Source of the DNA: Candidatus Aenigmatarchaeota archaeon | GTDB lineage: Archaea > Aenigmatarchaeota > Aenigmatarchaeia > Aenigmatarchaeales > Aenigmatarchaeaceae | Reading direction: 5' to 3' | Length of the DNA: 64,000 nt | Assembly (NCBI GenBank): GCA_043814985.1 | Contig: JBDRJK010000019.1 | Location: forward strand, 32,001 to 96,000 | In this document: piece after piece, positions 51,707 through 58,250 of the stretch | Numbering within the stretch: position 1 is the first letter of the stretch | Layout of the letters: every line of letters begins with the position of its first letter | Made by a program: the position numbers and the translations under genes | The notes under the pieces: model-generated | Databases searched by the model: none | What the model saw: the letters and a program-made list of their open reading frames with translations, nothing else | Told to the model about the DNA's origin: nothing

Positions 51707-51822
51707 CCCCGTCTGGCTCAATGGTAGAGCGGTCGGCTGTAGCTTTTTACTGTTGTATTAAGCATTTAGCAACCGTTCAAACAGAAACCGACAGGTTGGG
51801 AGTTCGACTCTCCCGGCGGGGA
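51707..51822 (+). tRNA. tRNA-Tyr(GUA) with 44-nt intron (51743-51786)
   Basis: C1-G72 acceptor CCCCGUC/GGCGGGG, A73, BHB helix CUGU/ACAG, GUUCGA T-loop. Confidence 0.93.
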
Positions 51823-52220: not shown

Positions 52221-52339
52221 TGGTTGCCGATCAAAGAGTGTAGGCAAGACCCGTTCCCATTTCGAACACGGTAGTGAATCTACATTTCGATTTCGGTTGT
52301 ACTGTCGAAAAGATGGGAACCCGAAGTAGTTGGCGACCA
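52221..52339 (+). rRNA. rrf: 5S rRNA
   Basis: Helix I UGGUUGCCGA/UUGGCGACCA; CCCGUUCCCAU..CGAACACGG.AGU; GUACUG...UGGGAA; ~119 nt. Confidence 0.9.
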
Positions 52340-52489: not shown

Positions 52490-52747
52490 ATGGTCGTCAT
52501 ACTGAAGCTGAACAAAGGAACAGCAGAGAAGCTTTTGGAATTCACTTACATCAAGCCAGAGCAGTCTAGGAATCTCTCAGGCAAGGGACTGACATTGGAA
52601 ATTGATGATAAGGACTTTTTGATAGAAATACACGAAAGGGAAAAGATGATAGAGATAGCGGACTATAATGGAAGCTTCGGGATATGGTTCAAGCTTACAA
52701 AGGAGAAAGTCAAGAAATTGAAGGAAATAGCAAAAATGGGCCCATAA
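52490..52747 (+). CDS. Hypothetical protein between tRNAs
   Basis: 85-aa ORF from ATG 52490; last codons overlap tRNA-Lys. Confidence 0.65.
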   Translation: MVVILKLNKGTAEKLLEFTYIKPEQSRNLSGKGLTLEIDDKDFLIEIHEREKMIEIADYNGSFGIWFKLTKEKVKKLKEIAKMGP

Positions 52748-52859
52748 CTCAGTTGGTAGAGTGCCAGGCTTTTATCTGTTAGATAAAAGCATGTGTAACG
52801 CGAAAGCGTGATGACAGGAAGAAACCTGGAAGTCGTGGGTTCGACCCCCACTGGGCCCA
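52738..52859 (+). tRNA. tRNA-Lys(UUU) with 49-nt intron (52775-52823)
   Basis: GGGCCCA/UGGGCCC acceptor; CCAGG/CCUGG anticodon stem; BHB CUUU/GAAG. Confidence 0.92.
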
Positions 52860-52865
52860 CTTTAT

Positions 52866-52975
52866 GCCGAGATAGCTCAGCCTGGTGGAGCGCCGGTCTC
52901 ATAAAATCATTATGAGATTTGATCCCAAGATGATATGGAATCCGGAGGTCGAGGGTTCAAATCCCTCTCTCGGCA
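52866..52975 (+). tRNA. tRNA-Met(CAU), elongator type, with 36-nt intron (~52904-52939)
   Basis: G1-C72 acceptor GCCGAGA/UCUCGGC; relaxed splice motif (UCAU/AUGG), so a 38/39 position is also possible. Confidence 0.9.
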
Positions 52976-58099: not shown

Positions 58100-58141
58100 A
58101 TGTAAATATATAAAAACACTTGCATATTATTCTCTTAAACA

Positions 58142-58250
58142 GGGGTCATAGTCCAACCAGGCCAAGACGGCTGGCTCCAGTCATGGAGCTTTGATTCCGA
58201 AGATGAAAGGAAGAAACCAGCTGATGGGGGTTCAAATCCCTCTGACCCCA
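58142..58250 (+). tRNA. tRNA-Trp(CCA) with 35-nt intron (58181-58215)
   Basis: GGGGUCA/UGACCCC acceptor; GCUGG/CCAGC anticodon stem. Confidence 0.92.

Follow-up and report, generated by a model that had tools for sequence, protein, structure and literature searches.

A 35-nt tRNA-Trp intron with a single box pair as a candidate half-mer guide to the wobble base in an Aenigmatarchaeota genome

To our knowledge, tRNA-Trp intron guides have been known since 2001 and have always been complete, two-sided box C/D RNAs; the intron-encoded box C/D guide of euryarchaeal pre-tRNA-Trp was reportedly described in that year by Clouet-d'Orval. According to PMC7994747, this guide (Haloferax volcanii; Pyrococcus sR50) specifies Cm34 and Um39 and is built from four boxes and two guides, which agrees with what an earlier note on the present DNA had claimed of the longer euryarchaeal Trp introns. 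The same source gives the N+5 rule, by which the target base of a box C/D RNA is the fifth nucleotide upstream of box D or D′ (PMC7994747).

The intron studied here lies in a stretch of 64,000 nucleotides (hereafter the window, meaning that whole stretch) from a genome of 0.81 Mb in 21 contigs, 91% complete. Like the euryarchaeal guide, it sits in the same tRNA and at the same intron site, carries an antisense across the anticodon loop with C34 at N+5 of box D′, and forms a guide duplex that competes with the splicing fold. The euryarchaeal guide has four boxes and addresses position 39 with a further guide; the present intron has only boxes D′ and C′ and a single antisense of 5–7 bp, within 35 nt in all. 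The module would work like known intron guides yet lacks two defining features, the terminal C/D motif and a guide of 10–12 nt.

Two further systems invite comparison. The elongator tRNA-Met of Nanoarchaeum equitans is described as carrying a box C/D-like RNA in a 66-nt intron (Randau 2012, PMC3491384). Here, too, a DPANN tRNA-Met intron contains an RNA that resembles a guide, but the N. equitans RNA is reported with box C, box D and a GC hairpin, whereas the Met intron here follows the same single-module design as Trp in 36 nt. Engineered half-mer C/D RNAs (Yang 2020, PMC7229835; Hardin and Batey 2006, PMC1635284) resemble the Trp module in having one box pair and one open-ended spacer. As these sources present them, they are synthetic, act in trans and form duplexes of 9–10 bp, whereas the Trp module is natural, would act in cis and has a shorter duplex. 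Such RNAs are reported to direct site-specific methylation in vitro (PMC7229835), specificity was reported as lost in the half-mer study of Hardin and Batey (PMC1635284), and whether half-mer C/D RNAs exist in cells is a question that the authors of PMC7229835 themselves pose. No description of single-module intron guides was found in the literature searched outside subscription journals.

We consider it probable that the tRNA-Trp intron represents a naturally occurring half-mer methylation guide of the box C/D type, with one antisense, one D′/C′ pair and no terminal C/D motif. To judge from its sequence, it would most likely direct 2′-O-methylation of C34 in cis before splicing.

Anatomy of the intron and its two folds

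The Rfam tRNA model matches the locus and treats 39 nt of the anticodon loop as an insertion. ARAGORN misses the gene under default settings but, once introns are permitted, reports tRNA-Trp(cca) and an intron of 35 nt. The intron occupies the canonical 37/38 site of archaeal bulge-helix-bulge (BHB) introns, and its borders are unique because moving either cut alters the mature sequence. Protein genes flank the tRNA gene on both sides, and an A/T-rich element upstream is a candidate promoter by the usual archaeal TATA spacing. Read from the sequence, the intron is UCA-UGGAGCU-UUGA-UUCCGA-AGAUGA-AAGGAAGAA.

Table 1. Features of the tRNA-Trp locus and of other intron-bearing tRNA genes. Coordinates are window positions, or genome:contig:positions where a contig is named.
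Feature	Coordinates	Strand	Basis or remark
tRNA-Trp(CCA) gene with intron	58142-58250	+	Rfam RF00005, 48.3 bits; ARAGORN with introns allowed
TATA-like A/T-rich element TATATAAAAA, candidate archaeal promoter	58107-58116	+	~30 nt upstream of tRNA-Trp
5′ exon, positions 1-37, 3′ end CUCCAG (32-37)	58142-58180	+	sequence, Rfam, ARAGORN
Target stretch GGCUCCA, positions 30-36	58173-58179	+	paired with antisense in minimum free energy (MFE) fold
Anticodon CCA	58177-58179	+	C34 = 58177
Intron, 35 nt, canonical 37/38 site	58181-58215	+	Rfam and ARAGORN
Antisense (guide) UGGAGCU	58184-58190	+	complementary to 58173-58179
Box D′-like UUGA	58191-58194	+	sequence
Spacer/loop UUCCGA, 6 nt, separating the boxes	58195-58200	+	sequence
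Box C′-like AGAUGA	58201-58206	+	sequence
Intron 3′ tail AAGGAAGAA	58207-58215	+	GAAGAA/A conserved in relatives (/, splice border)
3′ exon, positions 38-73, first base A38 = 58216	58216-58250	+	sequence, Rfam
Elongator tRNA-Met(CAU), 36-nt intron	52866-52975	+	sequence, Rfam
Met antisense UUAUGAGAU	52910-52918	+	
Met box UUGA, followed by UCCCA	52919-52922	+	
Met box AGAUGA	52928-52933	+	AAGAUGA at 52927-52933
tRNA-Arg(UCU) intron	G000:C1:64968-65077	-	UUAGAAGU-U-CUGA-UUCGA-AGAUGA; U34 at N+5
tRNA-Gln(UUG) intron	G000:C13:20278-20390	+	CUAAAGC-A-CUGA-stem-loop-UGUGA; U34 at N+5
tRNA-Arg(UCG) intron	G000:C5:7452-7567		UUCGAAGG-AU-AUGA-CUCAA-AGAUGA; N+5 is U33, not U34
tRNA-Lys(UUU), intron ~50 nt	52738-52859		antisense AUAAAAGC to own anticodon loop; N+5 not assignable
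Initiator tRNA-Met, 14-nt intron	G000:C21:52747-52835	-	clean 4-bp bulge-helix-bulge, no module

The elements that the earlier note had placed in this intron, including a division of the box region into UUCCG (58195-99) and AAGAUGA (58200-06) after UGGAGCU (58184-90) and UUGA (58191-94), are all present at those positions. The proposed pairing is likewise there: C34 lies opposite G58186, the fifth base upstream of UUGA, as the N+5 rule prescribes. The same note had cautioned that a 7-bp duplex is short, and this caveat is real, even understated. The 7 bp include a wobble pair, U58190-G58173, and since the anticodon stem also uses G30 and G31, the strain-free duplex amounts to 5 bp (positions 32-36), the full 7 bp requiring the end of the stem to open. 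In some relatives 5 bp are the most that the Trp antisense can form. An antisense of 5–7 bp, against the usual 10–12 nt of archaeal box C/D guides, counts against the guide reading.

UUGA and AGAUGA, set 6 nt apart, could form the tandem sheared G-A pairs of an internal D′/C′ motif. A terminal box C (RUGAUGA) and box D (CUGA) with the K-turn of a terminal stem are absent from the intron and its flanking exons; box C would have no room in the intron, since the sequence 12 nt upstream of UUGA is already exon. A CUGA in the 3′ exon (58221-24) was considered as a terminal box D and ruled out, as it is not conserved in relatives. Searched against the Rfam C/D and tRNA-intron guide families, the intron gave no match even at E values up to 10, the only matches at 58142-58250 being to tRNA; the lack of a C/D match is a further point against the guide reading.

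Two folds compete for the same bases and are mutually exclusive, as in the known Trp intron. In the MFE fold the antisense is paired with the anticodon loop. When the cloverleaf is imposed on the calculation, the guide hairpin comes to -40.1 kcal/mol, as against -34.0 kcal/mol for a BHB-like conformer. In the latter, GAAG (58210-13) lies opposite C35, C34, U33 and C32, with an A facing C34, and AA together with A38 makes a 3-nt bulge adjoining the anticodon stem. With the A-C34 mismatch and a weak outer helix, this is a relaxed bulge-helix-bulge only and not the strict form with a 4-bp central helix. The fold of the whole pre-tRNA is not unusually stable (z of -1.85; 10 of 200 shuffled sequences fold at least as well), which also speaks against the guide reading.

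On the half-mer reading, these elements would act in sequence. In the unspliced precursor the antisense is predicted to fold back on the anticodon loop, the thermodynamically favoured fold of the calculation above. The box pair would then form tandem sheared G-A pairs and be bound by L7Ae, Nop5-fibrillarin would be recruited, and C34, which lies five positions from box D′, would be methylated on its ribose in cis. Finally, the RNA would refold to the relaxed bulge-helix-bulge by way of the conserved GAAGAA tail and be spliced. In this sequence L7Ae binding, methylation and action in cis rather than in trans are inferred.

Archaeal tRNA introns are circularised, and the excised intron, linear or circular, might instead act in trans on other precursors or RNAs and not in cis. 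A trans mode is reported for the Haloferax pre-tRNA-Trp (PMC7994747). In trans, however, a duplex of 5–7 bp would be weak, folding favours the intramolecular hairpin, and a 35-nt RNA that must also carry a K-loop offers little room; we regard action in trans as distinctly improbable. Two in vitro results count against the half-mer guide itself: a trans substrate of 8 bp is reported as unmodified (PMC7229835), and an engineered single-motif complex as methylating non-specifically (PMC1635284).

Conservation and register of the Trp module

The pattern TGGAG-NNN-TGA-N2-12-GATGA occurs once in the window, against an expectation of 0.03. Taken by itself, the box pair (TTGA-N3-8-AAGATGA) is not rare: it occurs twice against 0.92 expected, both times within a tRNA intron. 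The tRNA-Trp motif is not due to chance.

A similarity search made without selection for the motif found the Trp locus in 25 of 41 relatives, from which 20 tRNA-Trp genes were extracted. Two of these genes are intron-less. Among the 18 that bear introns, UGGAG-NN-NUGA is kept in 16, and GAUGA also follows downstream in 14; the exceptions are L020, with UCGA at the place of NUGA, and L014, which is altogether different. Loss of the motif in close relatives, the outcome that had been named as telling against the proposal, was not seen: relatives both close and distant retain the module together with its N+5 register.

Several of these relatives have peculiarities of their own. The two intron-less tRNA-Trp genes, L016 (G040) and L025 (G004), have an encoded CCA end, and a motif match lies elsewhere in both genomes; they are possibly extra or foreign copies. 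The tRNA-Trp of L007 (G017) has, besides an anticodon-loop intron with the module, another ~24 nt inserted behind the D arm. The 71-nt Trp intron of L026 (G005) also contains UUGGUAUG-UUGA, an additional element with which C39 would fall at N+5, and L026 is the only relative with a plausible-looking two-guide layout. A second guide for position 39 was dropped as a candidate, there being no D box at that place in L017 and L018 and no such element in the tRNA-Trp studied here.

Across the phylum, the strict pattern CTCCA-N3-12-TGGAG-NNN-TGA-N2-32-GATGA is found in 96 of 371 genomes, in 31 of the 98 of high quality and, counted by genus, in 53 of 170, with the reversed-pattern control at 0 in all; about three of the listed places lack a tRNA-like context. 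The register was then left open by allowing any gap of 0–9 nt between TGGAG and TGA. This free-gap pattern has a match in 241 of the 371 genomes, and its control has a real background. Among the matches listed, which comprise 138 distinct sites with 258 further matches beyond them, a hand count gave 6, 4, 7, 74, 10, 6, 5, 14, 6 and 6 sites for gaps of 0 to 9 nt. The 3-nt gap is thereby enriched about ten-fold (74 of the 138 listed sites, against 4–14 for each of the nine other gaps).

A single plan recurs at 24 loci across the phylum: the exon GGCUCCAG, a loop of 2–14 nt, (N)UGGAG-NN-YUGA, a short spacer, NGAUGA and a tail that ends in GAAGAA immediately before A38. In 68 distinct related Trp modules, box D′ reads UUGA (42), CUGA (23) or AUGA (3) and box C′ reads AGAUGA (39), CGAUGA (21), GGAUGA (4) or UGAUGA (4), with mostly 5–10 nt between UGA and GAUGA.

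The pattern extends beyond this phylum. In a second DPANN phylum, centred on a Woesearchaeota genome, the strict pattern occurs in 84 of 251 sampled genomes (83 of 250 without the unpublished G616), and the control again gives 0. A scan of species-representative genomes returned at least 119 stretches with the pattern; among those listed, ARAGORN finds a tRNA in 40, with introns of 21–74 nt, and the remainder are chance matches, mostly bacterial. The sources of those with a tRNA include Aenigmatarchaeota, Woesearchaeota/Nanoarchaeota, Undinarchaeota, Micrarchaeota, Altiarchaeales and Haiyanarchaeum. No tRNA context surrounds the listed matches in Bathyarchaeota, Jordarchaeia, Methanobacteriota and Thalassarchaeaceae, which were set aside as chance. 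The genomes of the second DPANN phylum (G371-G623) show a symmetric arrangement, for example GCGAAAGC, unlike the loop form of the tRNA-Trp studied here; a G usually precedes box D′ there, which places GAUGA on both sides of a stem-loop closed by G-C.

This distribution bears on whether the module could be a decaying, non-working leftover of a full box C/D intron present in an ancestor. Longer Trp introns, of 66–98 nt, do occur in relatives (L010, L015, L017, L018, L020, L022 and L026), and the boxes are degenerate, as a remnant would have them. Yet in two phyla introns down to ~27–29 nt preserve both boxes, the antisense, the spacing and the 3′ tail, the same design is retained in tRNA-Met, and a relic would be expected to erode or vanish from genomes of 0.8 Mb. 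We judge such decay very improbable.

Box C′ itself supplies an objection to the half-mer guide. The base before GA is A or C in 60 of the 68 modules, and A in this tRNA-Trp, and recognition by L7Ae is said to need a U at that place (PMC7994747). The first and last bases of the spacer are, moreover, complementary in 54 of the 68 modules against 29.8 expected, a statistic that may count few independent events, since the contrast is chiefly between two types of lineage (U...A and G...C). If these bases pair, no unpaired bases are left for the kink.

Sister modules, methylation proteins and wider meaning

The whole genome was scanned for box pairs with a self-complementary stretch ahead of them, which yielded 19 matches, 4 of them inside tRNA introns; all intron-bearing tRNAs were then read. 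In elongator tRNA-Met, C34 (52900) pairs with G52914, again the fifth base upstream of UUGA. The earlier note had held that the boxes are identical in the Met and Trp introns and that the guide changes with the anticodon; UUGA and AAGAUGA indeed stand in both, each with an antisense matched to its own tRNA. The Met version of the pattern is present in 118 of the 371 genomes of the phylum (control 0) and was not found in three genomes of other DPANN groups. The Arg(UCU) and Gln(UUG) modules have consensus CUGA boxes. The Arg(UCG) module is off register by one base, the only one of the five modules in the genome to be so, and it counts against the guide reading. With the register kept in relatives and the antisense following the anticodon in Met, Arg(UCU) and Gln(UUG), the computational evidence supports the proposal of a family of ultra-short self-targeting guide introns. 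The same device, with matching antisense, would serve tRNA-Met, tRNA-Arg(UCU) and tRNA-Gln(UUG). Cm34 in archaeal tRNA-Trp and Um34 in tRNA-Gln(UUG) are both documented (PMC7668247).

The proteins that would be needed are all encoded, namely L7Ae, Nop5 and fibrillarin, the set associated with archaeal box C/D sRNAs. Fibrillarin is an intact ORF of 219 aa (266 bits); it is adjoined by Nop5, an intact ORF of 336 aa with an N-terminal domain and a Nop domain, and the L7Ae gene is present and intact. Fibrillarin is found in 356 of the phylum's 371 genomes, and in 98 of 98 among those of high quality, so that no correlation between it and the motif can be drawn; its absence, considered as a natural knockout, is uninformative for the same reason. 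The genome has one splicing endonuclease gene. No SpoU-type methylase was found in this 91%-complete genome, and matches to FtsJ are only marginal. Two regex scans for stand-alone C/D sRNAs, too crude for a claim of absence, gave 3 and 5 matches against 0 and 1 in reversed controls, none of them convincing. The intronic modules may be a major clientele of fibrillarin in this genome.

L7Ae is also a subunit of archaeal RNase P. The box pair might be a site for L7Ae or another protein that chaperones or times pre-tRNA processing with no methylation involved, for instance by masking the anticodon or by ordering the RNase P or splicing steps. The hairpin does compete with the splicing fold and could in this way be a timing switch, and the box C′ variant and the closing pair depart from classical K-turn rules. 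A mere binding site, however, needs no fixed distance to an antisense, yet N+5 is enriched about ten-fold, and in each of four tRNAs the base so selected is the one at the wobble position, which is reported as ribose-methylated in other archaea (PMC7668247). A role confined to protein binding seems to us unlikely.

If the half-mer guide is real, half-mer C/D RNAs exist and work in cells, which would answer the question posed in PMC7229835. The need for a bipartite architecture is disputed in vitro, as set out in PMC1635284 and PMC7229835, and a natural, conserved one-sided guide would make that architecture dispensable in vivo. Wobble-base methylation through intronic half guides would also explain the persistence of introns in reduced genomes, giving the tiny introns of the most reduced archaeal genomes a functional reason, and the Trp, Met, Arg and Gln introns would amount to a natural guide-swap series. 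More tentatively, and with somewhat less confidence than doubt, we suggest that these modules of ~25 nt are the smallest natural RNA-guided modification units, each a single kink acting in cis with the standard L7Ae-Nop5-fibrillarin machinery in at least four tRNAs, and that wobble methylation is possibly a main job of fibrillarin in these reduced genomes.

Other tRNA introns of this genome vary the theme. The tRNA-Lys(UUU) intron has a consensus GUGAUGA after a CGC-GAAA-GCG hairpin, with UGUG at the place of box D′ and no recognisable D′. Only 6 nt separate the end of the Lys gene from tRNA-Met, which makes co-transcription of the two probable. The intron of initiator tRNA-Met offers an internal contrast to the guide-bearing introns. 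The intron of tRNA-Tyr(GUA), ~44–47 nt long, has no module; this gene and a stand-alone 5S rRNA gene lie in one tRNA-rich stretch (window 51707-51822, 52223-52338).
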